DNA of 64,000 nt from Escherichia phage SP27, in the sequence record LC494302.1, one strand, 5' to 3'. Positions 1 to 64,000 of the stretch are shown in pieces. The notes under the pieces were generated by a model. That model saw nothing but the letters and a program-made list of their open reading frames with translations, did not search any database and was not told the DNA's origin. A program made the translations under genes and the position numbers. The stretch's first letter is position 1; every line of letters begins with the position of its first letter.

Positions 1-94
1 CAGGTACAATATTTCCGTACTTAACCATTCTTGTAAAAGGTAACATAAATCCCTCCTTATTCATTATATCATATTTACCCCATAAAGAAAACCC

Positions 95-123
95 TTGACA
101 TCCTTTCAGTACTGGTGTACTAT
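95..123 (+). promoter_or_regulatory. sigma70-like promoter upstream of family A array
   Basis: TTGACA 95-100, 17 bp spacer, TACTAT 118-123; AAGGAG RBS before ATG 149. Confidence 0.45.
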
Positions 124-148
124 AGAAGGAATATAAGGAGAACTACAC

Positions 149-376
149 ATGACAAATACTCTTAAGTACTACCTCAATACTCTAAATGAACTAGAGTACG
201 GGGAATTTCTCGCGGATAGTTCGTGGCTAATTGAGCTAAAAAATTATAATAGTCCAGGATGCACCCTTATGATGAACAATGCAATTGATACCCTCATTGT
301 GAGTATTTTACACAGCAACATCTGCGGGGATAGCAATAAACAATTATCAAAAATCTTAGTACTGCTATCTATATGA
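149..376 (+). CDS. hypothetical small protein, paralog family A (divergent first member)
   Basis: ORF with RBS; N-term KYYLNTL and NNAIDTL core resemble later copies. Confidence 0.55.
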   Translation: MTNTLKYYLNTLNELEYGEFLADSSWLIELKNYNSPGCTLMMNNAIDTLIVSILHSNICGDSNKQLSKILVLLSI

Positions 377-576
377 ATATCGAACAGTACTACATCGATG
401 CACTACCAACAAAAGGTCTACGTGAAAGCCTACTGCATACACAAACTAATTTCAAACACCTCAAACGTAGCCCTAAACTCCTGAACTCGTACAGGAATAA
501 TAACATAAGAAATGCTTTACAAGGGGTAGAATGTATGCAATACTATTACATCCTTACCCTATTAATTGAGTACTAA
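373..576 (+). CDS. hypothetical small protein, paralog family A
   Basis: ATGA overlap with upstream gene; C-term LTLLIEY tail. Confidence 0.6.
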   Translation: MNIEQYYIDALPTKGLRESLLHTQTNFKHLKRSPKLLNSYRNNNIRNALQGVECMQYYYILTLLIEY

Positions 577-577
577 T

Positions 578-787
578 ATGAATACTGAACATAAAGAATT
601 CTACACCAAATACCTTAGCAACGAAGAACAATTGTTTCTAAGGAGTGTATCACCTGTAAGTACCAATACTCAATTCGGTAGAGATTGCTTTAATAATTGT
701 ATACGTAGTACTCTAGAAGCAATCGAATGCAATAACAAAAATATTATGTACTCAGGTTTAATAGGACTAATATATTTCTATGAATAA
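578..787 (+). CDS. hypothetical small protein, paralog family A
   Basis: start moved to ATG 578 (MNTEHKEFY) by paralog alignment; FNNCIRSTLEA core. Confidence 0.6.
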   Translation: MNTEHKEFYTKYLSNEEQLFLRSVSPVSTNTQFGRDCFNNCIRSTLEAIECNNKNIMYSGLIGLIYFYE

Positions 788-974
788 TCATAAAGATTTC
801 TATTGTAGTAAACTACCCAAACAAGAACAGCTATCATTCTCTTTAGCACCACCTATGAGAAAGGATAATCTGTATTATAATTACGATTTCAGGATGGTGA
901 CACGTTATGCAATAGAACATCAGTTCCCTGAAACTAAGTACCGCTCTATCCTGAACCTCATCTTTAAGTTCTAA
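780..974 (+). CDS. hypothetical small protein, paralog family A
   Basis: MNNHKDFY N-terminus; overlaps neighbour. Confidence 0.6.
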   Translation: MNNHKDFYCSKLPKQEQLSFSLAPPMRKDNLYYNYDFRMVTRYAIEHQFPETKYRSILNLIFKF

Positions 975-1026
975 AAGGTACACCAGGGACCGAGTACTTT
1001 AATATAGTAAGGCTAATTACATTATA

Positions 1027-1212
1027 ATGAATCATATAAGCTACTACTACCAACAACTATCCGACAGAGACAAGTACAGTCACAACTCCCATGTGTGGTA
1101 CTACAAACGCGGCAGTATAAGAGACAAACAACATTACTTCTGTATTTCTATTAAAGAAGCACTGACAACTAAGTACACGTACCGAGCAGTACTTAAACTT
1201 ATTGAAATGTAA
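1027..1212 (+). CDS. hypothetical small protein, paralog family A (VLKLI subgroup)
   Basis: C-term YTYRAVLKLIEM shared with next 4 genes. Confidence 0.6.
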   Translation: MNHISYYYQQLSDRDKYSHNSHVWYYKRGSIRDKQHYFCISIKEALTTKYTYRAVLKLIEM

Positions 1213-1222
1213 AGAGAATACT

Positions 1223-1405
1223 ATGAACATTGAATTGTACTTAAGTAAATTACAGCCTGGCGATAGATTCATCTACAATAAGTTCGAATTCAACTACAAG
1301 AACGGGAGCAACAAATATCGTCGAGGATACCTATATACAAGCACAAGAGATGCACAAAACGAAAAGTACACATACAGAGAAGTACTTAAACTAATCTCTA
1401 TTTGA
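1223..1405 (+). CDS. hypothetical small protein, paralog family A (VLKLI subgroup)
   Basis: track ORF uses TTG at 1202; ATG 1223 (MNIELY) preferred; C-term YTYREVLKLISI. Confidence 0.55.
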   Translation: MNIELYLSKLQPGDRFIYNKFEFNYKNGSNKYRRGYLYTSTRDAQNEKYTYREVLKLISI

Positions 1406-1413
1406 GGTAATAT

Positions 1414-1599
1414 ATGAATACATTTGAGTACTATACCAATAAACTATCTATGCCTGAAAGATCTCATCTCTATGTGTGGAGAAATGCGTATAAAAGCGGC
1501 AATAAACTTATACAAAGAAATTCCCTTACAGTGTGTACAAATTTAATTAAAGCAGAGTACCGCACATATATTGAAGTACTCAAACTGATAGCAATATAA
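1414..1599 (+). CDS. hypothetical small protein, paralog family A (VLKLI subgroup)
   Basis: MNTFEYY N-term; C-term IEVLKLIAI. Confidence 0.6.
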   Translation: MNTFEYYTNKLSMPERSHLYVWRNAYKSGNKLIQRNSLTVCTNLIKAEYRTYIEVLKLIAI

Positions 1600-1607
1600 G
1601 GTACTCT

Positions 1608-1787
1608 ATGCAAGAATTCTATATCTATAACCTCCAGCACAAAGATAGATACAACTATAATAAATTCCAAAGGTACTACACAGTCGGGAACAAAAGAGAT
1701 AAAAAACGTTATCTACTCTCGTGTACAGTAGAAGCACAAAACGAAAAGTACACGTACAGAGAAGTACTTAAACTAATCTCAATCTAA
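1608..1787 (+). CDS. hypothetical small protein, paralog family A (59 aa, below ORF-track cutoff)
   Basis: read by hand: MQEFYIYNLQ...EKYTYREVLKLISI; fills gap between neighbours. Confidence 0.55.
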   Translation: MQEFYIYNLQHKDRYNYNKFQRYYTVGNKRDKKRYLLSCTVEAQNEKYTYREVLKLISI

Positions 1788-1794
1788 GGTAGAC

Positions 1795-1983
1795 ATGAAC
1801 ACTTTTGAGTACTACTTCAATAAACTAAACCACATAGAACAAAGTATGCACAACTCATTTATTCAGCACCATCAATCATCTGCACATGGAATTAAAAATA
1901 TATCGATTGAGATTATCACTACCCGTGTACAGTCATCTGAACGTTATATGTATATTGATGTACTGAAACTCATCTCTATGTAA
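1795..1983 (+). CDS. hypothetical small protein, paralog family A (VLKLI subgroup)
   Basis: MNTFEYYFNKL; C-term YMYIDVLKLISM. Confidence 0.6.
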   Translation: MNTFEYYFNKLNHIEQSMHNSFIQHHQSSAHGIKNISIEIITTRVQSSERYMYIDVLKLISM

Positions 1984-1991
1984 GGAATAAT

Positions 1992-2171
1992 ATGCAAGAA
2001 TACTATATAGAACACATAAGCATTAAAGACCGTTTCATGTACGACACCTTCGTGAAGTACTACAACCTGGCAACTAACAGTACTAAAAATATTAATCTCA
2101 ATAGCTGCATTCATCACGCACTAACAAAAGATAATCCCTTCAGGGAAATCCTCGCACTAGCATCTGTATAA
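1992..2171 (+). CDS. hypothetical small protein, paralog family A (59 aa, below ORF-track cutoff)
   Basis: read by hand: MQEYYIEHIS...NSCIHHALTK...; fills gap. Confidence 0.5.
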   Translation: MQEYYIEHISIKDRFMYDTFVKYYNLATNSTKNINLNSCIHHALTKDNPFREILALASV

Positions 2172-2181
2172 AGGAAACCAA

Positions 2182-2841
2182 ATGAAACTTAATGCACACA
2201 GCAAACAATACCTTAAGCACTTTAAGTACCTCAACAGTATTCAAGCAGAATCTATTACATCTGCATATACGTATCACCCAAATGTACTAAAGAAACGAAA
2301 TAAAAAGAAAAAATCCAGAAATGTTCTCGTATCTAAGAACCTCAAATCGTACTTGAAGAAAAATAATATAGCTCTTGCTTTTATTAATATCTATAATACT
2401 GATTTAAAAGTATTGAGTACTAATACCAGCACAAAAGCACTAAAGAATGCATCTATCTATATACACATGGATAATATCCCGTGCACTATAATTCTATCTT
2501 TCGGGAATGTATACTTCTTCGGGAATTGTAATAGCACCCATGATATCAGTACTGCACAATTCCAAATCGGCGATATGTACTGCATGGGTTCAGAAAAAAT
2601 ACACGATAACATGCACTTCTTCCAAAAGCAACGTACTAACGAAACTGATACAGTACTGCAATTCCTCAAAGAATTACAAGGCAAAGAATTATCAGAAGAA
2701 GATCTATTCATGTACAGTACTGTAATCGATAATCCAGAACTCTATAAAAACGCGTACAATCTAACAAAACATGTACAGGAACTTATCAGTACTGATAAGA
2801 AATTTCATCACCTCATTACGTATATTTCAAACTATGTATAA
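2182..2841 (+). CDS. hypothetical protein, family C-like member embedded in family A array
   Basis: 219 aa; contains EEDLFMYSTVID resembling the family C motif. Confidence 0.55.
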   Translation: MKLNAHSKQYLKHFKYLNSIQAESITSAYTYHPNVLKKRNKKKKSRNVLVSKNLKSYLKKNNIALAFINIYNTDLKVLSTNTSTKALKNASIYIHMDNIPCTIILSFGNVYFFGNCNSTHDISTAQFQIGDMYCMGSEKIHDNMHFFQKQRTNETDTVLQFLKELQGKELSEEDLFMYSTVIDNPELYKNAYNLTKHVQELISTDKKFHHLITYISNYV

Positions 2842-3016
2842 AGAATACTACAAAGATAAAATCCCAATGCATCTACAACACCATATACCAAACGTTGCAT
2901 TGGGTATCAAAGATCACGCAAAGATAATGTTCCAACAATGTACTAAGTACACGCTCATATACGATGATAATCCATATATGCTGTACTACGTAGTAATGCT
3001 AACATTCAGGTACTAA
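2834..3016 (+). CDS. hypothetical small protein, paralog family A
   Basis: start placed at ATG 2834 (MYKEYY); C-term VVMLTFRY. Confidence 0.55.
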   Translation: MYKEYYKDKIPMHLQHHIPNVALGIKDHAKIMFQQCTKYTLIYDDNPYMLYYVVMLTFRY

Positions 3017-3017
3017 T

Positions 3018-3197
3018 ATGAATACTTATAAAGAATTCTACCTCTCGTACCTTAATTCCGATATAGTAACATCCAATACATTCAGTACTAAAATTATCTA
3101 TAATGAATTAATGAAAGAATGTATTAAAGGTGCTATTAACCCTAAAGATACGTATGACTTGTACTATGCAGTACTAACCCTTGTTTTCACGAAATAA
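3018..3197 (+). CDS. hypothetical small protein, paralog family A (59 aa, below ORF-track cutoff)
   Basis: read by hand: MNTYKEFYLSYL...; fills gap. Confidence 0.5.
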   Translation: MNTYKEFYLSYLNSDIVTSNTFSTKIIYNELMKECIKGAINPKDTYDLYYAVLTLVFTK

Positions 3198-3205
3198 CAC
3201 ATAAT

Positions 3206-3397
3206 ATGAATAACCACAAAGAATACTACATAGAGAAACTCCCAATGTATCTCCAACACCTTGTACCAACAGAACCATTGGGTATAGAAAAAAACTACGA
3301 AAAAGACTACTTCATTCAGTGCACTAAATCCTCGATATATATTGAAGACTATAATCGAGTACTGTATCACATCCTTTTACTAATATATAGGTACTAA
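3206..3397 (+). CDS. hypothetical small protein, paralog family A
   Basis: MNNHKEYYIEKLP; C-term ILLLIYRY. Confidence 0.6.
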   Translation: MNNHKEYYIEKLPMYLQHLVPTEPLGIEKNYEKDYFIQCTKSSIYIEDYNRVLYHILLLIYRY

Positions 3398-3398
3398 T

Positions 3399-3581
3399 AT
3401 GCACAAAGAATACTACACACAATTTCTCCCCAGCATTTTTGAACACTACGCCAGATACAAAGTCCCTATGGATAACGATTTGGCAGTACTGGGATTCAAT
3501 AACTGCATAGAACGAAGTATAGAAAATAGTAGTAGTTATGACCAGCTATATAACACTATCCTACTTATATTCAGGTACTAA
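3399..3581 (+). CDS. hypothetical small protein, paralog family A
   Basis: MHKEYYTQFLP; FNNCIERSIEN; ILLIFRY. Confidence 0.6.
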   Translation: MHKEYYTQFLPSIFEHYARYKVPMDNDLAVLGFNNCIERSIENSSSYDQLYNTILLIFRY

Positions 3582-3582
3582 C

Positions 3583-3771
3583 ATGCATAAAGAATACTAC
3601 ACAAAATATTTCCCAATGTACCTCAGAACTAATCTATTAGATAAACCTCGCGGTATCAATGCACAAAATGATAAAGTGTATTTTACTATGTGCACTAAAG
3701 CATGTATACTAGATTTTGACAGCTACCATCGAGTACTGTATCATACCCTGTACCTAGCTTTCGTATTCTAA
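3583..3771 (+). CDS. hypothetical small protein, paralog family A
   Basis: start at ATG 3583 (MHKEYYTKYFP), 1 nt after upstream stop as at other junctions. Confidence 0.6.
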   Translation: MHKEYYTKYFPMYLRTNLLDKPRGINAQNDKVYFTMCTKACILDFDSYHRVLYHTLYLAFVF

Positions 3772-3780
3772 GAGAACAAT

Positions 3781-3966
3781 ATGCATAAAGAATTCTACTT
3801 AAGCCATCTGGATCTAAACTCCCAAATGCTTATACCACTAATCCCAATAGATATCAAGGATAAGAAAAATACCGAACAATTCATTTACCATACACAGTGT
3901 GCGATCACCCCAAATTACATTCCATATGAATTGTACTACATTATCGCCCTAATATATAGGTACTAA
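3781..3966 (+). CDS. hypothetical small protein, paralog family A
   Basis: MHKEFYLSHL; C-term IIALIYRY. Confidence 0.6.
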   Translation: MHKEFYLSHLDLNSQMLIPLIPIDIKDKKNTEQFIYHTQCAITPNYIPYELYYIIALIYRY

Positions 3967-3967
3967 T

Positions 3968-4153
3968 ATGCATAGAGAATACTACACACAATTTGTTAAA
4001 GGGAACTACAAACATGCCGTACCCAGAACCCCTTTAAATTCTCATGACCCAAGTACTATATTCTTGTTTAATGACGCAATACGTACAGTACTCAATACTA
4101 AAGATGAAGATGTGCAGTACGTATTCTTACTATTACTTATATACAGACACTAA
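3968..4153 (+). CDS. hypothetical small protein, paralog family A
   Basis: MHREYYTQF; FNDAIRTVLN; LLLLIYRH. Confidence 0.6.
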   Translation: MHREYYTQFVKGNYKHAVPRTPLNSHDPSTIFLFNDAIRTVLNTKDEDVQYVFLLLLIYRH

Positions 4154-4548: not shown

Positions 4549-5185
4549 TTAAACACATAGAGACAGGGGAAGCTCCTAGTGAACAACCTTTATGTACAGG
4601 CGAATTGTTAAAATTCAGCCTGGACAAATGCGATCACTAGGATTCTCCCCAGGCTAAACCCCGTAATCATAGGTAGTCATAAGTAATCATATATAAACAT
4701 TTATATGAGCACCGTAGAATCACAGAATGATTATATATGATTCAGTACTGATTAGTATAGACAAGAATGCTCAAGAATGCACGGGAAGGATTCAGAATGA
4801 TTCAGTACTGATATGCCACTAAGTAGGCAGAGGAAGTCTGCCGTACTTTGTAGTTTCCAAGCTCCTTTTCCATTTTGCAAATTACATCAAATGTAATCAA
4901 AAGTAATCACGCAATGATTAGTACTGAATTATTACTTTCACCTTAATTTCAATTACCCCTTTACCCTTCGGGGTAAAATTCAATTACCCCTTGAGGCTCC
5001 AGCAAAAAGTTGGTTAGTACTCCATCCTAAATCTGGATCGTAAAAAATTTGGAGTACCTATGAAATAAAAGTTGGATCTTCGAAAGTTGAAATTTACGTT
5101 GGGACATATAGGATTTGTGGGATATAATGAGTTTTGTAGCGATACAGATTATACGATTTCAGTACTGAATAATGAAAGAAAGCTA

Positions 5186-5213
5186 TTGACATTATGATTC
5201 AGTACTGTATAAT
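5186..5213 (+). promoter_or_regulatory. orphan sigma70-like promoter with no downstream ORF
   Basis: TTGACA 5186-5191, 16 bp spacer containing AGTACTG, TATAAT 5208-5213. Confidence 0.5.
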
Positions 5214-5549
5214 GTTCTACATAGGGTGATGAGTTGCTGCGAACAATTCATTTACTCTACCTCCTGTCGTGAGACAGTACAGAAAAGATAGTTCCTCCTG
5301 TGGTGGTACATCTTTTTGAACCTCATATGAAAATCGTAATAACAGTACTGATATTAACAGAATGGTGTCAGTACTGATTTTAATCTAAAGCATTATGCCA
5401 CCAGCACAAGTTGGTGGATTCCCTCTAACAGTATTCAGTACTACATGATAGTCTTCATCCTCCTAGGGTAACATAGTGAGGGCTATGATGGCAGTACTGA
5501 ATACTCCCTTTCAAAAGATAGATCTATGGTATAGTACTGACGGATTTTG

Positions 5550-5745
5550 GGTGTAGTTACCCTGGATGGATTTTGGACGTAGATATGTCTAGCCCTCCAG
5601 AAGTCTGGAAGTAAAGATGGCTATCCATCTAGACGGCTAAACGGATAGATTTCTGGATGGCTGGATGGCTAGACGTTTGGACGGCTAAACGGCTAGATGG
5701 TTACACGTCTGGAAGTATAGACGGCTAAATCAAAATTTTATTTTG
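5550..5745. repeat. cluster of short direct repeats (iteron-like)
   Basis: GACGGCTAAA x3, TCTGGAAGTA x2, several GGATGG/CCATCC and CTAGACG motifs within about 200 bp, locally GC-richer. Confidence 0.5.
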
Positions 5746-5950
5746 TTTTTTCCAATAGTTCCCCTACCGCGTGGGGATAGTTTCCCCGCAGTATCTGGAG
5801 TTAGATTTTTCTGAATCTGGAATCATTATCTTATAAACTGGGGGCAATGTCAACGGCCTGGACGGATATTTTTAAAAATTTTTTCAGTACTGAATTTTGG
5901 GCGTAACTATGCACCCGGTGGGCTTGAGTCTTTCTCGACTTGATGGAACT

Positions 5951-5978
5951 ATTATACAGTACTGAAAAAATAAAGCAA
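5951..5978 (-). promoter_or_regulatory. minus-strand sigma70-like promoter
   Basis: reverse complement reads TTGCTT-16-TATAAT; transcribes leftward through a GCACCCGGTGGG element. Confidence 0.4.
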
Positions 5979-6166
5979 TACCCTGGAAGCAAAAAAGTTT
6001 TAATTAATTTGCTTGCTATCCTGGGCCGGACTATGGTACTATATTTCAGTACTGAGAAAGTGCGTTTACCTGCTAGGGTGCGGGAGTGTATCCTTTTTTT
6101 ATATCTTGAATTTTGGGCGTAATTCCGCACCCTCTGGGGTTTCCGCTTTCTCGCGTCTATGTAGTA

Positions 6167-6194
6167 ATTATACGCTTTTTCAGGATCAAGTCAA
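6167..6194 (-). promoter_or_regulatory. minus-strand sigma70-like promoter
   Basis: reverse complement reads TTGACT-16-GCGTATAAT. Confidence 0.45.
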
Positions 6195-6349
6195 TACCTA
6201 AAAACAAAATAATTGAAAATAATTTAACGCGTTTAAACGGCCCGTAACGCCCTGGAATGATTAGAATGGTGCAAATGTATAGCTTAGGTGTATTAATGCG
6301 TTAGAATGCGTCTGAGGCCGTTTTATGGGGTGTAGTAGTGATTTGGTTG

Positions 6350-6440
6350 ATTCAGTACTGAATAATAGTACTCCTATATAGAAAGATAGTTCCCCTGGAT
6401 GGTTGCAGTACTGAATAATAGTACTCCTATATAGAAAGAA
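6350..6440. repeat. direct repeat of about 34 bp, two copies
   Basis: CAGTACTGAATAATAGTACTCCTATATAGAAAGA occurs twice about 55 bp apart. Confidence 0.7.
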
Positions 6441-6470
6441 AACTATTTTAAAAGTATTTGTAGAAAGTAC

Positions 6471-6530
6471 TTGCACCGTACTGATAAAAGCGTATAATGT
6501 TTTACATCGAGAGCGGGAACACTTCCCGCT
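6471..6530 (+). promoter_or_regulatory. class I early promoter plus 5' stem-loop cassette
   Basis: TTGCAC 6471-6476, TATAAT 6493-6498, GTTTTACATC; hairpin AGCGGGAAcacTTCCCGCT 6512-6530. Confidence 0.65.
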
Positions 6531-6916: not shown

Positions 6917-6930
6917 GTTTAATAAAGTAC

Positions 6931-6989
6931 TTGCAAACTATGTTTAATGGCGTATAATGTTTTACATCAGGTGGGGAATAGTTCCCCAC
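6931..6989 (+). promoter_or_regulatory. class I early promoter plus 5' stem-loop cassette
   Basis: AAAGTACTTGCAA -35, GCGTATAAT -10 at 6953-6958; hairpin GTGGGGAAtagTTCCCCAC 6971-6989. Confidence 0.7.
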
Positions 6990-10111: not shown

Positions 10112-10118
10112 AAAGTAC

Positions 10119-10178
10119 TTGCAATTAGTTTTCAGTACTGTATAATGGTTTACATCAAAGGGAGAAATGGTTCTCCCT
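10119..10178 (+). promoter_or_regulatory. class I early promoter plus 5' stem-loop cassette
   Basis: TTGCAA 10119-10124, TATAAT 10141-10146; hairpin AGGGAGAAatggTTCTCCCT 10159-10178. Confidence 0.65.
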
Positions 10179-25692: not shown

Positions 25693-25789
25693 GAAATAAA
25701 AGGGATTGGACTATGGCAAAATGCGTAGGGGGCTAAAGGGCGGGTAACCTTAGCGACTTCGATAAAGGGGTATTACGAATAAAATGTTA

Positions 25790-25818
25790 TTGATTTTTTA
25801 TACGAATCGTATATTATA
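25790..25818 (+). promoter_or_regulatory. putative promoter for family B array
   Basis: TTGATT then about 17 bp then TATATTAT; GGAG RBS before ATG 25848. Confidence 0.4.
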
Positions 25819-25847
25819 GGATTGATATTATTTTTAATGGAGTCCCT

Positions 25848-26045
25848 ATGCGTATTTTAACTAAAGAACAGCACCACGAAAGACTTATCAATAACATGGC
25901 TATGATAATGTATAAGTCCCATGACCGTGGTATTGCCTATAAGCGTGAATTAATTATGGCACTATTCATTGGAACTAACTTTCAGGAAAGGTATGTCAAC
26001 GATTGGATTTGGTATTTAATTGAAGATATAACGAGTAAACTATGA
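25848..26045 (+). CDS. hypothetical small protein, paralog family B
   Basis: motif FIGTNFQERYVNDWIWYLIEDI. Confidence 0.6.
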   Translation: MRILTKEQHHERLINNMAMIMYKSHDRGIAYKRELIMALFIGTNFQERYVNDWIWYLIEDITSKL

Positions 26046-26242
26046 AAATGCGTATTTTAAATAAAGAAGAATATCAATCACTGTTACGTAAAAACTTCAC
26101 AAAGATTTATAATACAGACACACACGTAGAACGAATGGAGTTATACCTTTTGATTACTTTGGGAACTAACTATCAGGAAAGATGGGTGATTCAATATATG
26201 GATACATTGAAAAATAAAATATTGTCCACGAGGAAACAATGA
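26042..26242 (+). CDS. hypothetical small protein, paralog family B
   Basis: motif LGTNYQERWV; ATGA overlap. Confidence 0.6.
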   Translation: MKMRILNKEEYQSLLRKNFTKIYNTDTHVERMELYLLITLGTNYQERWVIQYMDTLKNKILSTRKQ

Positions 26243-26448
26243 AAACTATAACACGAACCCAATCATACGGTCTTATCTTGAAATACATGGACTTAATGGT
26301 GGATATCAGCAAAGACCTTCCTAAAACTGAAATTGAAGTTGCAAGAGCAGAGATCCGCATGTTGGCTGTACTGAACACAAACCATCAGGAAGATTATGTT
26401 GAAGAATGGATTCGATTTTTAATTCAAGATATAAAGAGTAAATTATGA
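26239..26448 (+). CDS. hypothetical small protein, paralog family B
   Basis: motif LNTNHQEDYVEEWIRFLIQDI. Confidence 0.6.
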   Translation: MKTITRTQSYGLILKYMDLMVDISKDLPKTEIEVARAEIRMLAVLNTNHQEDYVEEWIRFLIQDIKSKL

Positions 26449-26657
26449 TTTTTTTAACACCAGAAGAATATAAGAAACGTTTCAATTCCGCACAGGGTGA
26501 AATCTTACTTATATACCTTTCAAATGCAGACCTTAACTTATCAAGGGTATTAGAAAAAGATTTACTTATGGGTGCATTCCTTGATACAGACTTTCAGGTG
26601 TATTATGTAGGGGAATACTTAATTGCACTCCAGAATTACATTAAGAGTAAACTATGA
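26445..26657 (+). CDS. hypothetical small protein, paralog family B
   Basis: motif LDTDFQVYYVGEYLIALQNYIKSKL. Confidence 0.6.
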   Translation: MIFLTPEEYKKRFNSAQGEILLIYLSNADLNLSRVLEKDLLMGAFLDTDFQVYYVGEYLIALQNYIKSKL

Positions 26658-26866
26658 ATAGCATTAACTCAAATCTATATACCGAACGCGTCGCGGCCAG
26701 ACAACTTGAAATTCTCATAGTATATGAAGAGACTGATGATTTAAACTTAGCATTAGTATTGGAAAATGATATACTATTGGGTGCATTCCTCGGCACAGAC
26801 TATCAGGAGCACTTCTTGAATGAGTATATAATTGCACTCCAGAAATACATTAAGAGCAAACTATGA
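26654..26866 (+). CDS. hypothetical small protein, paralog family B
   Basis: motif LGTDYQEHFLNEYIIALQKYIKSKL. Confidence 0.6.
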   Translation: MNSINSNLYTERVAARQLEILIVYEETDDLNLALVLENDILLGAFLGTDYQEHFLNEYIIALQKYIKSKL

Positions 26867-27081
26867 AACATTTAAGTAATTACGAGAAGAATAAAATTAT
26901 CGTTGCTGCAATAAACAAATATTTTACACTTCCTCACACAGAAGGTTTATGTGTAAGGGAACACAGGATAAACACCACCGATATACGCATGATGGCTGTA
27001 CTGGGGACGAACTTTCAGGAAGAGTATGTTGTTGCACACATAGTTGCCCTCACTGATCTAATAAGGGACAAATGTAAATGA
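26863..27081 (+). CDS. hypothetical small protein, paralog family B
   Basis: motif LGTNFQEEYV. Confidence 0.6.
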   Translation: MKHLSNYEKNKIIVAAINKYFTLPHTEGLCVREHRINTTDIRMMAVLGTNFQEEYVVAHIVALTDLIRDKCK

Positions 27082-27335
27082 AACACTTAACTGATGATGA
27101 ATTTGAAACTATAATTCGTAAACTAACCCCCATCACAAGGATAGTCTACGGTGACCCCAGCCTTACATGGAACCAAATGCGAGCTAAAGTTAATGAGCTA
27201 TGGTTGCTGTACTTTATGGGGACTCAATATCAAGATAAGTTTTGCACAGAATATATCGAACAATTAACGAATGTTATACAGGATAAACTAGATGATTATT
27301 TGCTCACAAAACATGAAGACTTTATCAGGAGTTGA
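27078..27335 (+). CDS. hypothetical small protein, paralog family B
   Basis: motif MGTQYQDKF. Confidence 0.6.
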   Translation: MKHLTDDEFETIIRKLTPITRIVYGDPSLTWNQMRAKVNELWLLYFMGTQYQDKFCTEYIEQLTNVIQDKLDDYLLTKHEDFIRS

Positions 27336-28650: not shown

Positions 28651-28651
28651 C

Positions 28652-36279: not shown

Positions 36280-36304
36280 GATATGGGCTTTTTTCGTTTT
36301 GGTA

Positions 36305-36874: not shown

Positions 36875-37410
36875 GCAGTACAACAGTATCAAAAGTACAG
36901 AAAGCAATGTCATTCAATGAAATTGGTACATTTAAAGATAAGATCATTGATTGCCTTGAATACATGATTTGTAGTAATATCGAAAGTATCGAGATATTTA
37001 ACAAGACAAATCGCTCTTACCATATGATGTACATTGCAAACAATAATGGTATCATTCCATTTATTTCGGATAGTACAATATGGTACGCATGTGATACGAA
37101 AAAAACCACAATAGGTTTACATTTATTTGAGACACATTATGATCTAATTATTCCTGAGCATTGTATGCAAGAAGAAGAATATTTTCAAATGCAATGTATA
37201 CATTCACCATTAGTGTTGTTTAGTTTATATATTATACCTTATATCACCAAATGTGTTCATGAGAATAAAGCTCCGTGGAATCATGAATTTGTATCGTTGA
37301 AGTTATTGTATAATGTATTAGTAGAATATTATGATTACAGGCACAATGGTACAATCAGTGATGTATGGGATTTTGAATCGCTAAGGGTGAAAACATACAC
37401 AGGTGAATGA
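36871..37410 (+). CDS. hypothetical protein, paralog family C
   Basis: motif EEEYFQMQCIHS. Confidence 0.55.
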   Translation: MSSTTVSKVQKAMSFNEIGTFKDKIIDCLEYMICSNIESIEIFNKTNRSYHMMYIANNNGIIPFISDSTIWYACDTKKTTIGLHLFETHYDLIIPEHCMQEEEYFQMQCIHSPLVLFSLYIIPYITKCVHENKAPWNHEFVSLKLLYNVLVEYYDYRHNGTISDVWDFESLRVKTYTGE

Positions 37411-38026
37411 TATGACCAGAATTAAAATGTATGATTTGATGCAGTACAGTAAAATTGCCATTCCAGTGCTTAATAAAGTGCTGGATGCATTCATTGCCAA
37501 ATACCCTGAGAATTCAGTGTTATGTATTCCATTTAGTGTTCCAGATAAAGATGATATATTCCAAGTGAATGTCAGTACACGTGGTATTACATTACAGCAG
37601 AAATACATGGATACGGAATATTATGGAATAAAGTTGGATTCAGTACAGGGTTCAAAATCAGCCTATGATTTTTTTGTTCCTAATAATATAGAGTCATGGG
37701 AAACAAACATTTCAAAGAAAGATGAAAATGATGTTCCTATTAGTGGTGTGTTCAACAATAAAGTTTTTTATTATTACGAAACCGACAAATTCCCTGAAGA
37801 GTTATATTACAATTCAGAAATGAATGAAGATGTAGATGCATTCATGTTTCAATTATCTTTAGTACATGATATCATTGATGTTAAAGAGTTAAGAGCAGAA
37901 ATCAATTTAGCTAAAGAGTTATCGGACATGCTGCCACCGTTTAGTATGCTTTTTTGTGAAGGTGGTTATTTTTCAAAAGAAGTGTTTGAACATTTCGTAG
38001 ATGTTGTAAAAGGGTTGGATATATAG
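37403..38026 (+). CDS. hypothetical protein, paralog family C
   Basis: motif DAFMFQLSLVHD. Confidence 0.55.
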   Translation: MNDMTRIKMYDLMQYSKIAIPVLNKVLDAFIAKYPENSVLCIPFSVPDKDDIFQVNVSTRGITLQQKYMDTEYYGIKLDSVQGSKSAYDFFVPNNIESWETNISKKDENDVPISGVFNNKVFYYYETDKFPEELYYNSEMNEDVDAFMFQLSLVHDIIDVKELRAEINLAKELSDMLPPFSMLFCEGGYFSKEVFEHFVDVVKGLDI

Positions 38027-38027
38027 T

Positions 38028-38222
38028 ATGCTTACAGTTGATGTTAAACAAAAATACCGTAAGTTTGATTGGTTCACCGACAGTTTCCAGCTTGAATTAT
38101 TACATTTGAATATCTGTGAAACATTATGTGCAGAAACACAAGATGAATTTGATGATAGAGTGATGAACATAGTAATGCTTTCTTGCTTTAAACATTTTGG
38201 TTATTTTTTCGGACAGAATTGA
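38028..38222 (+). CDS. hypothetical small protein
   Basis: 64 aa; weak motif DSFQLELLHL. Confidence 0.4.
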   Translation: MLTVDVKQKYRKFDWFTDSFQLELLHLNICETLCAETQDEFDDRVMNIVMLSCFKHFGYFFGQN

Positions 38223-38230
38223 GGTAAAAA

Positions 38231-38749
38231 ATGCATCAACACAAGCATCATTCATATGATTTTGCAATTAACATTATGAAGTTCATTCGAGCGTTGGAGG
38301 ATGGGAAGCTTAGTCATAAGTACAGAAAAGAGGGTAACAATTGGTTCAGAAATGATGATGATGAGTTCAGAAGTCATAAGATTGTTTACAGCAATAATTA
38401 CAGTGCCAATTACCTACAAGATGTAGTGATGTGTTTTGAATACGTGTTGCAGTTCAGGGGTTCAATCCAGGATGAGTTGATGGAGCACATGTACATCAGA
38501 TACCTTCCAATGCTCAAAGATGAAAATGTATTATTAAATTCAATATACCAACGAGTTCGTGAAATTGAGTGCAGGGATATATTAGATACAGAAGAATCGT
38601 ATTTCCAGCAATCCCTGATTTATGCACCTGATTTATTACAGGTACATAATTTGTTTAATACATTACGTCAAAACATCAGTACAGACATATTTTTGTCATT
38701 ATCGGATTATGATACATTTGTCAAAGATTTAGAGGAAATAGGTTTATGA
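38231..38749 (+). CDS. hypothetical protein, paralog family C
   Basis: motif EESYFQQSLIYA. Confidence 0.55.
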   Translation: MHQHKHHSYDFAINIMKFIRALEDGKLSHKYRKEGNNWFRNDDDEFRSHKIVYSNNYSANYLQDVVMCFEYVLQFRGSIQDELMEHMYIRYLPMLKDENVLLNSIYQRVREIECRDILDTEESYFQQSLIYAPDLLQVHNLFNTLRQNISTDIFLSLSDYDTFVKDLEEIGL

Positions 38750-39090
38750 GTATATTTTCGGTTTATATAGTAAACGTCAGTAAAGATGGTAGTTTAATTG
38801 AATTTGATGTAGTTGATAACAATGATAATTCATATGGTATTAAGGTACAGGACAATGATGTACAGTTCAGTACAAGGACAAATTTTGAGAATCCAGTCCA
38901 AGTTCCGAATTTCATAGAAGATGAAGCTGCACGATTCCAATACGAAACGGCATATGACAATGTACATATGCATATTATTATGCAAACGAGTTTAGTTCAA
39001 TTAGTTCCTTTGTTCAGACAAAATATATATGTACATGAAGTGTCGATTAATGGCATTCAAAGTTCCGTTTTGTTCGGTACAAATATGTAA
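38746..39090 (+). CDS. hypothetical protein, paralog family C
   Basis: motif EAARFQYETAYD. Confidence 0.5.
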   Translation: MSIFSVYIVNVSKDGSLIEFDVVDNNDNSYGIKVQDNDVQFSTRTNFENPVQVPNFIEDEAARFQYETAYDNVHMHIIMQTSLVQLVPLFRQNIYVHEVSINGIQSSVLFGTNM

Positions 39091-39100
39091 GGAAAGTACA

Positions 39101-39652
39101 ATGAGTTCAATGAGTTTATTAGATACATTAGAAAAAGACAGAAGTGCAATTAAGCGTTTAAAAGAGCAAGTACAAAAGATTGTATACAACGTTGATAAGT
39201 TTGAAGTCCCAGGAAGATTTGGTGATATTTCCCATACGGAGATCAAATCCCTTAAGTCAGATTTGTTGATTAAAAATAAAAATGGGTTGATTTTAGTTTT
39301 GAGTTCAGATATGATGGGGGCAACACATAGTTATAATGCAGTATCGGTGCGTTCAGAGTGTGAAGGTATATATCTATCACAGGGTTTCAATAGCGAGACA
39401 CAGGTTTGTTTTTGTGATGCAGTACATGACCCTATGAAGTTCACGAGAAGTGAAGCCCAAGCGTTATTAGAGCTATCAGACGAGAGTTTGTTTCAGTACA
39501 GTACAATGTATGACAATGATAAGCTTCGTTGTATGTACGCTGTAAAGCATTATACACATGAGTTCTCTGGATTTGCATACCTTTTAGTTAGAACCAATAC
39601 CAGATATATTGATATGTTAGAAGATTACATCGATAAAGTTGTTAATGTATGA
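39101..39652 (+). CDS. hypothetical protein, paralog family C
   Basis: start at ATG 39101 (MSSMSLLD) after AAGGAAAG; motif DESLFQYSTMYD. Confidence 0.55.
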   Translation: MSSMSLLDTLEKDRSAIKRLKEQVQKIVYNVDKFEVPGRFGDISHTEIKSLKSDLLIKNKNGLILVLSSDMMGATHSYNAVSVRSECEGIYLSQGFNSETQVCFCDAVHDPMKFTRSEAQALLELSDESLFQYSTMYDNDKLRCMYAVKHYTHEFSGFAYLLVRTNTRYIDMLEDYIDKVVNV

Positions 39653-39834
39653 TGTATGATTATGTGATGGGATAATGCTGATGAAAGAGTTATTTGAAGA
39701 TCAGTTCAATGCATATGTGGATAATATTCTTTATTCCAGTCGTGCCAGTCAACGAGGAAATCGTGCTTACAACATAGATTACCTATTAACGGTGCTGAGT
39801 TCACAGTACACCTACGCTGTACAGAGGACATATT

Positions 39835-40038
39835 ATGAATAATTTTAGAGATGTTGCTAAGGAGAAGTTCAAGTGCAGTTTAGATTACGGTTTAAATGAT
39901 TTTCTTACATGCACAATGTACAGGAATGATGATTATGAGCAATCCGTAATTTCGTTGCACAGATATTTCGAAATAATTTACGCAAGATATCTTAGAAGGT
40001 TAGATGGGATAGGGGATTGGAATTATGATTACGTTTGA
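39835..40038 (+). CDS. hypothetical small protein
   Basis: AGAGGA RBS; 67 aa. Confidence 0.45.
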   Translation: MNNFRDVAKEKFKCSLDYGLNDFLTCTMYRNDDYEQSVISLHRYFEIIYARYLRRLDGIGDWNYDYV

Positions 40039-40234
40039 AGAGCCGGAAGTGTTAAGTTCGCATAGTATTAAGGGTTTTGAATACATGATGGATTTGATTT
40101 TGAAGGATACATATTTGGTTCAGAGTGTAGATAATACGGTACACCGAGTATTGAATTTATACGAGATGACGAGTCGAAGGCTTTGTGCTATGAAAAGGAT
40201 TGAAGAAATCAAGCTTTCTAGGCTGAATAAATAG
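40025..40234 (+). CDS. hypothetical small protein
   Basis: 69 aa; overlaps previous. Confidence 0.4.
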   Translation: MITFEEPEVLSSHSIKGFEYMMDLILKDTYLVQSVDNTVHRVLNLYEMTSRRLCAMKRIEEIKLSRLNK

Positions 40235-40433
40235 AGACGTTTCATTTTTACAGGCCGCTGGGGGGGGTCAAAAAAATTTCCGCTGAAAAACATGCTAAGG
40301 TATATGTTTAATATAAAGTTTTATATTGTGTTTTTCAGAGTACAGTTCATGTTTCCTGAAACAAAAAATACCCCGCCCCCGCAACGTGCTCCTTATATTG
40401 GAGTTTACCTTATTAATTATAGTAGAGATTAAG

Positions 40434-40811
40434 ATGGAAATAAAATATAATGAATTTTGTGCAAGGACATGGATGTACACTGGTGAGTTAGTTACGCACT
40501 CTAACTTATACAAGGGTGATTTAAACTACGCTAGGGACAAGATTTTAAAGTACTGGAATGCTGACTTTTATTTGATGGATTTTAGTACTGGGTTTCATGG
40601 GATATCTATCGAGATGCCGGACTATACAGTACTTGATGATGCTGCACTGTTCCAGGAGGCATTAGTATTTGATAAGAAGTACATCTGTACATTAGAAGAG
40701 ATGATTGAATTACAGCGTAGAATTAAATGTATTCACAGGGAATGTATAGATATCTGGTGCAGTACTGGTGAGGCCGATTTCTGGAAATTTTTTAATCTAG
40801 GAGAAGAGTGA
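40434..40811 (+). CDS. hypothetical protein, paralog family C
   Basis: start at ATG 40434 (MEIKYNEF); motif DAALFQEALVFDKKY. Confidence 0.55.
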   Translation: MEIKYNEFCARTWMYTGELVTHSNLYKGDLNYARDKILKYWNADFYLMDFSTGFHGISIEMPDYTVLDDAALFQEALVFDKKYICTLEEMIELQRRIKCIHRECIDIWCSTGEADFWKFFNLGEE

Positions 40812-61353: not shown

Positions 61354-61400
61354 ATGTGAACATATTAGATTCTTGTGATATAATGTTCACATCTTTTTTT
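61354..61400 (+). terminator. intrinsic terminator whose loop contains an extended -10 promoter element
   Basis: ATGTGAACAT ... ATGTTCACAT 10-bp stem followed by T9; loop holds TGATATAAT. Confidence 0.65.
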
Positions 61401-61417
61401 TGATAACGGAGATATAG

Positions 61418-61804
61418 ATGAATACAAGTTCAATCCTAAAAGCAATTGGTGGTGTTTTACTCATTGAAGTAAAAGGTGAACCAAAGCTATGCTGTTTAGA
61501 AGATATGAAGAATACAAAACACTTCAGTACTGGTCAGATTTTCAATGCCATTCGTATTCTAAATGACAAATCCATTGCTGATTATGGAAAAGTTTGGCCT
61601 GTATATCAAAATGCTGATGGTGATATCAGTACTGATTGGAAAACAATTGAGGCGGTACGACAAAGTTGTGAGAGTGATTGGGACTTCATTGTTGAAGTTT
61701 GTGATCAACTACAAGAAGATGTTCCAGAAATTGTCGAACGAAAAGAAGTCCTAGCACGACTTGAAAAATTCCGTCACGGAACACTACAGTATGACACAAT
61801 CTAA
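61418..61804 (+). CDS. hypothetical protein
   Basis: 128 aa; ACGGAGA RBS. Confidence 0.6.
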   Translation: MNTSSILKAIGGVLLIEVKGEPKLCCLEDMKNTKHFSTGQIFNAIRILNDKSIADYGKVWPVYQNADGDISTDWKTIEAVRQSCESDWDFIVEVCDQLQEDVPEIVERKEVLARLEKFRHGTLQYDTI

Positions 61805-61853
61805 TCTGCTTATTAAAAATATCTAATTAACATTATATAAAAGGAATTTAAAA

Positions 61854-62159
61854 ATGGAAGACAATGGAATGAAATTTGATATGTTTGAAGGTGTACCAGA
61901 GTTCGATTTCAATAAACTTGAAAATGGTGAAGAATCAGAACTAGTAAGTGTTACACTAAAATCAGATACCAAAAAGAAATATTCCCCATCAGTTCGTTCA
62001 CGTTCTCAAGAAGAATATGAAACCTTCATTGAGAGTATTCATTACGAAACGTTCCATCATGCAGATGGTACTCCGTATGAAGTTCGTGTTACAGTACTGA
62101 AGCCTGAAGTAAACCCAATGGAAAATCTACGTCCTGTTTACTGCTGGGCAAGCCACTAA
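61854..62159 (+). CDS. hypothetical protein
   Basis: 101 aa; AAGGAA RBS. Confidence 0.6.
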   Translation: MEDNGMKFDMFEGVPEFDFNKLENGEESELVSVTLKSDTKKKYSPSVRSRSQEEYETFIESIHYETFHHADGTPYEVRVTVLKPEVNPMENLRPVYCWASH

Positions 62160-62169
62160 TAAACCAAAG

Positions 62170-62198
62170 GACGGGATATAATATCTCGTCTTTTTTTT
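62170..62198 (+). terminator. intrinsic terminator
   Basis: GACGGGAtataataTCTCGTC followed by T8. Confidence 0.65.
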
Positions 62199-62210
62199 GT
62201 CTGGAGATAT

Positions 62211-63059
62211 ATGAAACTTTATCTAATCGTTGACTACAGTAAGGGTTATTATGACTACGCAGAAGAATCTGAAGGGTATTGCTCGTCTACTAATGTCAAT
62301 GTACGCACCAGTAGTACACATGAGCATGAATCTATTACAAACCTAAAAGATTTCATCGCATATCGAGCATTTGAAAAGAATTTCTGTCGTAGTAGATATT
62401 CGAAGTTTGAGTACCCGTTAATTGATGTTCCTGATGAATTGATGTTCCAGTTAATGCTCACTGGAGTACAAGATTATGATTACATCGCGTACAATCACAT
62501 TACTAAGAAAATTTATATCGGTACGTCAACACATGACATTTCTATGTATGCATCATGCCCCGATGATCGAATGAATGATAGAAAATCATACTATAGTGGT
62601 TCAGTTGGTTCAAATGATTCATTAAATGAAAATTTATTCTTTGAGTACGAGTTTGATAATCATCGAGGGAAAAAAGACCGAGAAGATTATTGTACTGAAA
62701 TTGATAGTACCAATGGATATGAAGAAGTGAAAGAAGCGATAATGCCATATATCCTTGACAAGTACTACAAAGATTTTCAGTACTGTAGTAATTTTCTAAT
62801 CCGAAATTCTATCATAATCGGTCGTCAAAGTACTGCATTCTCTAAGTACTACAATGATTCCCCTGTTGCTGAAAATGAAAACTGTAATATTCTCTCAATC
62901 CCACGTGAAGATATGGTATTCATGTTCACATCTTTCATTGAAGATGATGAGTTGTATGTAAAAAACAAGCACAGGTTCATGCCAAGTAAGATTGAGGTTA
63001 TGAGAAGCTTAAGTGCAGATATCTTAACTAATTTCACTGAAAAAACAGAATACAACTGA
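62211..63059 (+). CDS. hypothetical protein with family C-like motif
   Basis: 282 aa; contains DELMFQLMLTGV. Confidence 0.55.
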   Translation: MKLYLIVDYSKGYYDYAEESEGYCSSTNVNVRTSSTHEHESITNLKDFIAYRAFEKNFCRSRYSKFEYPLIDVPDELMFQLMLTGVQDYDYIAYNHITKKIYIGTSTHDISMYASCPDDRMNDRKSYYSGSVGSNDSLNENLFFEYEFDNHRGKKDREDYCTEIDSTNGYEEVKEAIMPYILDKYYKDFQYCSNFLIRNSIIIGRQSTAFSKYYNDSPVAENENCNILSIPREDMVFMFTSFIEDDELYVKNKHRFMPSKIEVMRSLSADILTNFTEKTEYN

Positions 63060-63088
63060 GACATACCATAAGTTTATGATATAATGTA

Positions 63089-63122
63089 AGGTGACAGCAG
63101 AATATGTTGTCGCCTTTTTTTT
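63089..63122 (+). terminator. intrinsic terminator
   Basis: GGTGACAGcagaatatgTTGTCGCC followed by T8. Confidence 0.6.
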
Positions 63123-63737
63123 AATCCTGAAAGGTTCCATATGGAAATGATTAAAGCCTAATCCACTCGAAAAGTAGAGGGTAGATGAGTAGTCCTTTCA
63201 GTACGAACAGCAAATGAAACCCGTTAGATGATGGCATAGTTTGAACCACTCACGGCAATGCGGCTGTATAAAGAACTCCAATAGGATAAAGAGAGTTCCT
63301 CGATAGACATATAAGGATCGCACCTTACCAATTATCTAAGGGAGATTTCATGAGAAATTTGCGGTCGGAATTATACAATATAGTTGCGTCCAAATTTTGT
63401 GAAATCAAATACAAGTACTGGTCATATGGTATTTGTATTATGTGTCGGGATGTTTAAGACCGACGACCGTTGCTACAAGAACCGCGATAGAGAGAAACAG
63501 AGCAACCCGCTTTCGTCTCGTAAGAGAATTCGTGATATGAACTATGTGAAGGCCACCAGCGTCAAACTTTTTTGTTCTTTCCCCTGCGGGGGGATGAAAT
63601 ATGCTCAAGCAAACCCCGTCAATATTAATTAAAAGAAAATAGTACTTGTAGAATTAGACATGCGTAGCATGGTAATTCTACTGATGTTGATGAAATCAAC
63701 GTCACGTATATTCATTGATGTTTCCATAGGAATAATG

Positions 63738-64000
63738 ATGGCATTTATTAGAAAAGAAAAAACTGTTACTTATAAAACTTTGAATTTTGATGATTGCATT
63801 AATCAATCACAAGACGAAGATATCTTTACTGGATATGTGGTTATTAAAGAAAAAGGATGCATTTCTTATATAAAGGAATTGCAAAATGGAATTGAAGTGA
63901 CTTCAGTTAAATTACTTCCTACTCAAAAACCAACAATATCAAAAGCCCAGTATGGTAATTATTTTGAAGAAAGATATAGTAATAATTCAATAAGTGTTAA
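63738..64000 (+). CDS. hypothetical protein, 3' end beyond window
   Basis: ATG 63738 (MAFIRKEKTV...) open to the window end. Confidence 0.45.
   Translation, partial: MAFIRKEKTVTYKTLNFDDCINQSQDEDIFTGYVVIKEKGCISYIKELQNGIEVTSVKLLPTQKPTISKAQYGNYFEERYSNNSISV

Follow-up and report, generated by a model that had tools for sequence, protein, structure and literature searches.

The window studied here, a stretch of 64,000 nucleotides from Escherichia phage SP27 (sequence record LC494302.1), is crowded with the palindromic hexamer AGTACT, which raises the question of why a phage genome should hold so many copies of one palindrome. The over-representation had been noticed in a preliminary description, made by hand sampling of the letters, in which a functional site was proposed. 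Exact counting confirmed it: AGTACT occurs 270 times in the window (4.2 per kb), against 21.4 copies expected from base composition and 18.3 expected from a first-order Markov model, an excess of about 14-fold. The hexamer is a selectively maintained, genome-wide iterated palindrome which is specific to RaK2-like jumbo phages of Enterobacterales. The enrichment appears to be undescribed so far; no published description was found in the literature searched, where the extended form CAGTACTG matched primer sequences only.

The excess is confined to this word. AGTACT has the highest ratio of observed over expected copies among all hexamers of the window, the next being CAGTAC and GTACTG, sub-words of the same motif. 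None of the other 63 palindromic hexamers exceeds 2.2-fold, and about 26 of them have zero copies. The contrast with the palindrome depletion usual in phages, which had been drawn in the preliminary description, therefore holds, and is stronger than was recognised there, as these palindromes and GCGC are at zero and unrelated coliphages deplete AGTACT itself. For GTAC, a several-fold enrichment had been claimed, which applies overall (631 copies against 202 expected), but outside AGTACT the enrichment is only about 1.8-fold and is largely due to the half-sites AGTAC or GTACT. Longer words are enriched further: CAGTACTG occurs 65 times (0.72 expected), TCAGTACTGA 21 times (0.07 expected) and TTCAGTACTGAA 8 times (0.01 expected). 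C precedes AGTACT in 117 of the 270 copies and G follows in 125, the outer positions are rich in A and T, and G before or C after the hexamer is disfavoured.

As a control for coding sequence, synonymous codons were shuffled within each gene, whereby the protein sequences and the codon usage of each gene were preserved. The shuffled window held 56.5 ± 5.9 coding AGTACT compared with 191 observed (z = 22.6), which leaves a 3.4-fold excess, and CAGTACTG was 8 times above the shuffle mean. The control palindromes TGTACA, ATGCAT and GATATC were near 1 under the same procedure. In the complete genome of the relative ECO103 4-12-1 (351,992 bp, hereafter ECO103), 228 ± 14 coding copies were obtained by shuffling and 791 are observed (z = 39). 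Thus, the enrichment survives correction for codon usage, and codon usage with dinucleotide composition, for which correction had been asked in the preliminary description, does not account for it in full. All three codon phases are used (68, 46 and 66 coding copies); together with the shuffle, this spread rules out an artefact of codon usage or dipeptides.

AGTACT is indeed frequent inside coding sequence, as had been stated, with 3.6 copies per kb compared with 7.7 per kb in intergenic DNA of the window. Its density is 6.5 per kb at 1-25.7 kb, 3.7 per kb at 40.5-64 kb and zero in two blocks, hence the 5-7 per kb estimated by hand is right for the first 25.7 kb and too high elsewhere. The window is tiled by open reading frames (ORFs), nearly all of which are small and on the + strand, and no tRNA genes were found in it. 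At window positions 1-4,000, a run of + strand ORFs of about 60 amino acids has a strongly negative GC skew (-0.18), the skew of the remaining window being positive, and GTAC density peaks there at 17.8 per kb.

By megablast, the window is 94-97% identical to jumbo coliphages of the Asteriusvirus group (PBECO4, 121Q, phAPEC6, G17, Sharanji, SHEFM2K and ECO103), the genomes of which measure 348-386 kb. ECO103 carries 919 AGTACT (101 expected; 2.6 per kb over 352 kb) and 204 CAGTACTG (4.4 expected, 46-fold). All of its 6-kb bins hold the hexamer, mostly at about 1.5-3 per kb; one region of about 22 kb, richer in G+C, reaches 6-8 per kb. Spacing is near random (mean 380 bp, coefficient of variation 1.24), and distances from site to site peak at 20-22 bp. 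The profile around start and stop codons is flat, except that density dips at the ribosome-binding site and peaks 2-fold directly after the stop codon. The word AGTAC is completed to AGTACT in 919 of 1,321 cases (70%), although T makes up only about 35% of the bases. Single-base variants of AGTACT have observed/expected ratios of 0.6-2.2, compared with 9 for AGTACT itself. The flanking bases act nearly independently, as 204 copies of CAGTACTG were observed and about 191 are expected if C before and G after are combined at their individual frequencies. Half-sites show no strand bias genome-wide (about 134 against 131 over 0-130 kb), with one block of the window as the sole exception, and AGTACT is therefore not a polar signal of the chi or KOPS type. 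Two artefacts were rejected with these data. Expansion of a repeat family does not fit the diverse 12-mer contexts, the commonest of which, TTCAGTACTGAA, accounts for only 16 of the 919 sites, nor the near-random spacing; a repair drive of the very-short-patch type does not fit the deamination variant AGTATT, which is not depleted (observed/expected ratio 1.05). With at least about 1 copy per kb, a 9- to 15-fold excess over the first-order Markov model across the window, ECO103 and RaK2, and copies in all frames and in non-coding DNA beyond what codon usage explains, AGTACT is a highly iterated palindrome.

The sites are under purifying selection. The alignment with ECO103 covers 95% of the window at 94.2% identity, and within it AGTACT is intact in ECO103 at 233 of 254 sites (91.7%), compared with 78% for all hexamers or for flanking control hexamers. 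Per-base identity is 97-99% in AGTACT and about 94.5% outside, i.e., substitution is about 3-fold lower in the hexamer than in its flanks. Gains and losses are balanced, 21 copies being specific to the window and 19 to ECO103. The depletion of single-base variants expected from a repair drive toward AGTACT was seen for none of the variants.

Other genera were sampled at 30-168 kb each. RaK2 holds 518 AGTACT in 168 kb (3.1 per kb; 114 against 10.8 expected in the first 50-kb sample), GAP32 64 (7.2 expected) and Serratia phage BF 68 (7.9 expected), an excess of 8- to 12-fold across the three. The AGTACT-rich genera are Asteriusvirus, Alcyoneusvirus, Mimasvirus and Eneladusvirus, between which there is no alignable DNA. 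The Pseudomonas relative PA5oct has 1 copy where 8.8 are expected, and two unrelated coliphages of about 150 kb (Justusliebigvirus), which have one small gene in common with the window, have 0 and 1 where 12.7 are expected; GCGC is normal in all of these. The excess is thus common among the four enterobacterial genera and missing outside them, PA5oct and Justusliebigvirus being depleted. Depletion in other coliphages places AGTACT among the palindromes which are avoided in the same host; in the window, at 14-fold enrichment, it is the opposite of an avoided restriction site. In protein-guided codon alignments, AGTACT positions in common with ECO103 numbered 24 of 89 for RaK2 (13.9 expected), 10 of 39 for GAP32 (4.4 expected) and 7 of 55 for BF (6.5 expected), so that positions are shared only slightly more often than by background. 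Density remains at about 2-3 per kb in all compared genera while positions turn over. Density is kept rather than individual sites, which points to a role on the whole DNA molecule. The functional site proposed in the preliminary description is accordingly upheld insofar as AGTACT is selected beyond chance and codon usage; a packaging signal, one of the functions suggested there, is unlikely, since the sites are spread near-randomly over the genome and their positions turn over between genera.

Other short words are purged from the same genomes. GCGC is absent from the window (44 expected), from ECO103 (180 expected in 352 kb), from 168 kb of RaK2 and from the samples of GAP32 and Serratia BF, and its lack co-occurs with the AGTACT excess in all four genera. 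The absence could reflect avoidance of a HhaI-type enzyme or sparing from a phage-encoded nuclease which cuts GCGC. In ECO103, the type II/IIS words CTGCAG, CCATGG, GGATCC, GCATGC, GAGACC, CTCCTC, CAGCTC and others are at zero where 26-60 are expected; restriction-site avoidance in this genome is unusually thorough. Density of AGTACT also varies locally in RaK2. At 322-335 kb, tail-spike and tail-fibre genes like those of K11, K1E and K5 hold 0-4 AGTACT per 2.5 kb, compared with 5-11 per 2.5 kb immediately upstream (300-322.5 kb). That these tail genes are nearly free of AGTACT fits recent acquisition, and low AGTACT density may flag recently acquired genes.

AGTACT occupies fixed positions in early promoters. 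These promoters are concentrated in the direct terminal repeat, which was located with fEgEco12, a phage whose termini were confirmed experimentally (PMC13070987). Position 1 of fEgEco12 falls on the left boundary of the repeat in the window (97% identity) and its repeat end, 20,993, on the right boundary at about 25,750, with collinear sequence of 93-97% identity between them. A genome end at about 40.9 kb, considered on the coordinates of the Sharanji record with the second AGTACT-free block as the extreme terminus, was overturned by this mapping. The repeat is dense with cassettes in which a σ70 promoter, a G+C-rich hairpin and a ribosome-binding site precede a tiny gene, a layout like that of the PeSL cassettes of T4-type phages (repeated modules of early promoter and stem-loop before small genes in hyperplastic regions). 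Near-consensus σ70 promoters on the + strand were called with at most 2 mismatches in total. The repeat contains 36 of them, 25 with AGTACT in the core promoter, whereas outside the repeat only 3 of 23 candidate promoters of the window have one. In 16 of the 36, AGTACT starts 7-8 nt upstream of the -10 hexamer (AGTACTGTATAAT or AGTACTGGCATAAT) and abuts it; 12 have it against the -35 hexamer, at or across its upstream edge (AAAGTACTTGCAA or AGTACTATTGACA); and 5 carry both sites, 20-24 bp apart. Genome-wide, 25 of 48 promoter-associated AGTACT have their first base 7 or 8 nt upstream of the -10 hexamer. The promoter contexts quoted earlier for -35 and -10 are real. RaK2 has an equivalent G+C-richer region of about 20 kb at 225-245 kb with 6-10 AGTACT per kb, and 11 of 12 promoters among those listed follow the design AGTACT-TGACA...cAGTACTG-TATAAT, e.g., AGTACTtgacaacataaaccAGTACTgtataat. 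Although the DNA of RaK2 does not align with that of the window, its promoter design is the same, so the placement expected of an operator, overlapping or abutting -35 or -10, is found in both phages. The promoter cassettes hold only about 33 of the 135 AGTACT of the terminal repeat.

The coordinates of all features are listed in the table.

Table. Features of the window related to AGTACT, with positions counted from the first nucleotide of the window.
Feature	Position	Strand	Remarks
AGTACT excess	1-64,000	.	Preferred extended form CAGTACTG / TTCAGTACTGAA
Direct terminal repeat	4,822-25,750	+	Placed by homology to fEgEco12; G+C-richer part of window (38.7%); 135 AGTACT (6.45 per kb)
Non-coding stretch at predicted left terminus	4,549-6,490	.	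Many copies of (A)TTCAGTACTGA(A/T), read from sequence
Promoter TTGACA-N16-TATAAT	5,186-5,213	+	AGTACT at 5,201-5,206 abuts -10 (AGTACTGTATAAT)
Promoter of AAAGTACTTGCAA-N16-TATAAT class	6,926-6,958	+	AGTACT at 6,926-6,931 overlaps upstream edge of -35; stem-loop and ribosome-binding site follow
Recurrences of the 6,926 cassette	7,609; 8,170; 8,972; 12,772; 14,298; 15,114		
Two-site promoter	10,114-10,146	+	AGTACT at 10,114-10,119 (-35 edge) and 10,134-10,139 (beside -10); centres 20 bp apart
Further two-site promoters	10,904; 13,012; 14,527; 20,303		
Chi GCTGGTGG	12,380; 16,377; 17,839; 19,107; 21,179; 22,583; 24,160; 24,382	+	
AGTACT-free block 1	25,751-30,410	+	From terminal-repeat boundary; tandem genes of about 70 amino acids; GTAC at background (10 in 4.7 kb)
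AGTACT-free block 2	32,850-40,548	+	GTAC 9 per kb; next base A in 60/68, T in 0/68
Tightly packed early genes, 100-200 amino acids	40,549-64,000	+	86 AGTACT (3.7 per kb), nearly all within coding sequence

Further elements lie in or next to the terminal repeat. In the non-coding stretch at its left end, no + strand ORF of at least 45 amino acids, no tRNA and no Rfam match was found; this 1.9-kb stretch includes tandem repeats of 24 and 32 bp (GGCTAAACGG and GGCTAGATGG units) at 5,628-5,727, which likewise match nothing in Rfam. The element TTGACTCCGGTCAGTCCCTTTGCTATTATAT at 19,026, 22,018 and 24,274 (variant at 14,991) is promoter-like, has an internal inverted repeat and carries no AGTACT; it is a separate promoter class within the repeat. 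Chi, with 8 copies where 0.24 are expected, occurs exclusively on the + strand and exclusively inside the predicted repeat, and RaK2 has 9 Chi in the same orientation and 1 in the opposite one at 220-245 kb. Oriented in this way, Chi would halt RecBCD that enters at the right end of the genome.

As to what reads the palindrome, it is plausible, and held here with some reserve, that AGTACT is the recognition site of a clade-specific, abundant, dimeric DNA-binding protein, serving as operator at early promoters and as coat or marker elsewhere. Symmetric recognition of double-stranded DNA is favoured because 70% of AGTAC form part of the full palindrome, the preferences in the flanks are symmetric and graded, and the paired promoter sites lie two helical turns apart. 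Graded symmetric flanks (C before, G after, A/T-rich outward) are typical of a dimer operator and not of a discrete 6-bp enzyme site. The optimum site would be CAGTACTG, with a weaker preference extending to TTCAGTACTGAA. At the approximately 36 very strong σ70 early promoters, the bound factor would occlude RNA polymerase, and the promoter copies would thereby be operators for early shut-off or timing. Through the other AGTACT, about 900 or one per 380 bp, this factor would also be loaded along the entire phage chromosome, which could organise the chromosome, protect it or mark it as self. A global role is suggested by the near-random spacing, by the flat profile along genes and by a density which is kept while positions turn over. 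The enrichment, the purifying selection, the density kept across genera and the fixed promoter positions are shown; that a protein binds AGTACT, that it is of phage origin and that it represses is inferred.

Several points weigh against such a protein. A Pfam scan of 435 small ECO103 proteins gave no helix-turn-helix, TetR, HU or ribbon-helix-helix match, and most of them match nothing. About 900 sites multiplied by many genome copies per cell would demand the protein in very large amounts. Since the promoter cassettes form a repeated family, the positional regularity is partly due to common descent. A symmetric dimer leaves block 2, in which only oriented half-sites GTACA occur, unexplained. 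Finally, the present data do not separate a binding protein from a methyltransferase acting on the same palindrome.

The main alternative, a possible one, is such a methyltransferase. AGTACT would then be its target and an analogue of the cyanobacterial HIP1, and the methylation state would be the signal, which could protect from restriction of the ScaI/Eco255I type, tell old from new strands and make early promoters methylation-sensitive. The candidate is a 173-amino-acid N6-adenine methyltransferase of family PF05869, located in the complete relative just beyond the position of the 3' end of the window. It belongs to a distinct clade found in Asteriusvirus and RaK2-like Klebsiella phages (66-100% identity), the next relatives being at most 46% identical. 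ScaI isoschizomers, e.g., Eco255I, exist in E. coli, and the depletion of AGTACT in unrelated coliphages (0-1 copies against 12.7) and PA5oct (1 against 8.8) makes it plausible that such cutters act, in which case about 900 unprotected sites would be a liability. The placement beside -10 and -35 recalls Dam-controlled promoters, in which sites lie next to these hexamers, and HIP1 abundance is said to correlate with the cognate methyltransferase, as reportedly found by Elhai in 2015. However, methylation accounts for tolerance of AGTACT and not for its 14-fold enrichment, the flank preferences reach 8-12 bp, an uncommon extent for the site of a type II enzyme, and the signature of very-short-patch-type repair is missing, with AGTATT at its expected count. 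Since PF05869 includes GATC-specific as well as non-specific enzymes, the specificity of the candidate is not fixed by its family; neither a solved relative nor a close relative with known specificity was found for it. The other methyltransferase is DNMT3-like and probably targets CpG (PMC3622015). This 5-methylcytosine enzyme of 286 amino acids (ECO103 segment L002:43,771-44,631) aligns along its entire length with DNMT3A/B/C catalytic domains (E ~1e-23) and better with eukaryotic DNMT3 than with M.HaeIII or M.HhaI, which fits the CpG methylation reported for RaK2 by bisulfite sequencing (PMC3622015). DNA of fEgEco12 was cut as predicted by ten enzymes, whereby broad hypermodification is excluded, and normal cutting of this Asteriusvirus DNA by EcoRI, HindIII and ClaI, which were among the ten, rules out broad adenine methylation (PMC13070987).

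More speculatively, the purged restriction words and the one palindrome saturating the DNA might together constitute a self-marking code, by which a phage factor would tell phage from host DNA and time early transcription. A strand-specific reading of 5'-AGTAC in Asteriusvirus would then explain the 7.7-kb block without a template-strand copy. This combination is regarded as doubtful.

The blocks bear on such strand-specific reading. AGTACT-free gaps of more than 2.2 kb number only two in the 352-kb genome, and both follow shortly after the left terminal-repeat copy; at the genome mean AGTACT density, the probabilities per gap are about 4e-6 for block 1 and 2e-9 for block 2. Block 1 coincides with part of a tandem array at 25,850-31,400, in which about 20 overlapping genes, apparent paralogues encoding about 70 amino acids each, have the common context ATGGCTGTACTG; no AGTACT occurs in the array as far as 30,410, beyond which sites return. 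In block 2, A precedes 43 of the 68 GTAC, and AGTAC followed by a base other than T occurs 43 times against 0 for GTACT preceded by a base other than A. These neighbours indicate that the coding strand has retained 5'-AGTAC and that the template strand has been purged of it. ECO103 shows this pattern too, as does the divergent Asteriusvirus TH47, the aligned DNA of which is 79-90% identical to the window; one block-2 gene is just 38.5% identical in protein sequence. Persistence despite this divergence argues for maintenance and against a frozen accident. Conservation of AGTACA in block 2 (34 of 39, about 79% expected) is not clearly above that of the surroundings. In RaK2, no strict AGTACT-free, GTACA-only block was found, only a mild coding-strand excess (83 against 45).

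It is nevertheless unlikely that the functional unit is a strand-specific 5'-(C)AGTAC read on single-stranded or nicked DNA, the palindrome being merely the cheapest way of placing this word on both strands. Candidate readers would be a gp61-type primase starting at GTA (compare GTT in T4 and GTC in T7), a site-specific nickase or a clamp-loading signal. The one-strand pattern of block 2 and its retention in TH47 speak for this proposal, as do the nearly independent flanks of AGTACT and a uniform density of about one per 380 bp in coding and non-coding DNA, which suits a replication-scale signal. RaK2-like phages encode homologues of gp41 and gp61, and late transcription of T4 reportedly needs nicks in the non-transcribed strand, a finding ascribed to Herendeen et al. 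in 1989. On the other side, known primases need just trinucleotides, which exert no force toward a hexamer excess, and the genome would be broken up if both strands were nicked at 900 palindromes. Completion of 70% of AGTAC to the full palindrome indicates that double-stranded DNA is recognised symmetrically, and a strand-specific word leaves the fixed promoter positions unexplained. The RaK2 and AGTACA results given above count against it as well.

That AGTACT is the binding site of a host protein of Enterobacterales, which the phages exploit or titrate, is highly improbable. All AGTACT-rich phages infect Enterobacterales, and the Pseudomonas relative is negative. The candidate is SlmA, a dimeric helix-turn-helix protein; the 12-bp palindromic consensus 5'-GTGAGTACTCAC-3' of the SlmA-binding site (SBS) contains an identical central AGTACT, and SlmA requires G1, T2, a purine at 3, A4 and G5, with a pyrimidine at SBS position 6 (PMC3020112). 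In ECO103, however, the base before AGTACT, which is SBS position 3, is preferably C (47%), with G rarest (6%), contrary to this need, and the phage motif also disfavours G1. The window lacks the word GAGTACTC, of which there are 4 copies in 352 kb; ECO103 has no instance of the full pattern GTRAGYRCTYAC, and no SBS-type matches exist in the 352 kb. Unrelated coliphages of the same host deplete AGTACT. SlmA was rejected for its incompatible flanks, and we know of no other E. coli regulator with an AGTACT site.

The remaining possibility, a functionless by-product of codon or amino-acid usage, repeat-family expansion or mutation or repair bias, is largely refuted: the repeated cassette family does supply part of the terminal-repeat count, and the 56 copies expected from the shuffle are already 3 times the 18 of the Markov model, which places some of the signal in codon usage, but a z of 23-39 is left after shuffling, AGTACT occurs in all codon phases and varied contexts, its bases evolve more slowly than the flanks, no single-base variant is depleted as repair drive predicts, gains and losses are balanced (19 against 21), and density is conserved across genera without alignable DNA.

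Among known systems, HIP1 (GCGATCGC, cyanobacteria) is likewise a short palindrome with about 1 or more copies per kb, in many-fold excess, in all frames and in non-coding DNA; its abundance is lineage-specific too, and it has a possible link to an orphan methyltransferase. AGTACT differs in its A/T-rich sequence, its viral instead of cellular carrier, its fixed positions in core promoters and single-base variants without strong bias toward the outer positions, and its link to a methyltransferase is putative. The phage repressors gp71 of mycobacteriophage L5 (about 30 sites) and C1 of P1 (about 17 operators) provide cases of one motif repeated over a phage genome, some sites overlapping -35 or -10 and others lying in transcribed DNA; the L5 stoperators are orientation-dependent, which recalls block 2. 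AGTACT has about 30 times more sites (919), mostly coding, and is a palindrome of 6-8 bp and not an asymmetric site of 13-17 bp; its carrier is a lytic phage and its reader putative. TF1 of SPO1 is a functional analogy, being an abundant, phage-encoded binder with preferred sites at early promoters, which takes part in early shut-off and binds genome-wide. TF1 recognises hydroxymethyluracil DNA without a short palindromic consensus, and it is of the HU type, of which no member was detected among the 435 small ECO103 proteins scanned with Pfam. The target of ScaI and Eco255I is the same hexamer, and its depletion in other coliphages suggests that such systems act in these hosts; here it is enriched and not avoided, and no restriction enzyme gene was identified.

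Discussion of phage genomes usually turns on the palindromes they avoid, but here a clade of 350-kb phages enriches one palindrome and purges others, which implies a dedicated AGTACT reader with a genome-wide role. Finding this reader could reveal by what means these poorly understood jumbo phages shut down about 36 very strong early promoters, how their DNA is organised or protected without a phage nucleus or hypermodified bases, and how they survive restriction systems cutting AGTACT. From the motif, testable predictions follow for how ScaI and RsaI act on virion DNA; in metagenomes, it provides a simple signature by which the clade can be recognised, and AGTACT-free stretches may flag recently acquired genes. 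These phages are a rare tractable model for the function of iterated palindromes such as HIP1.

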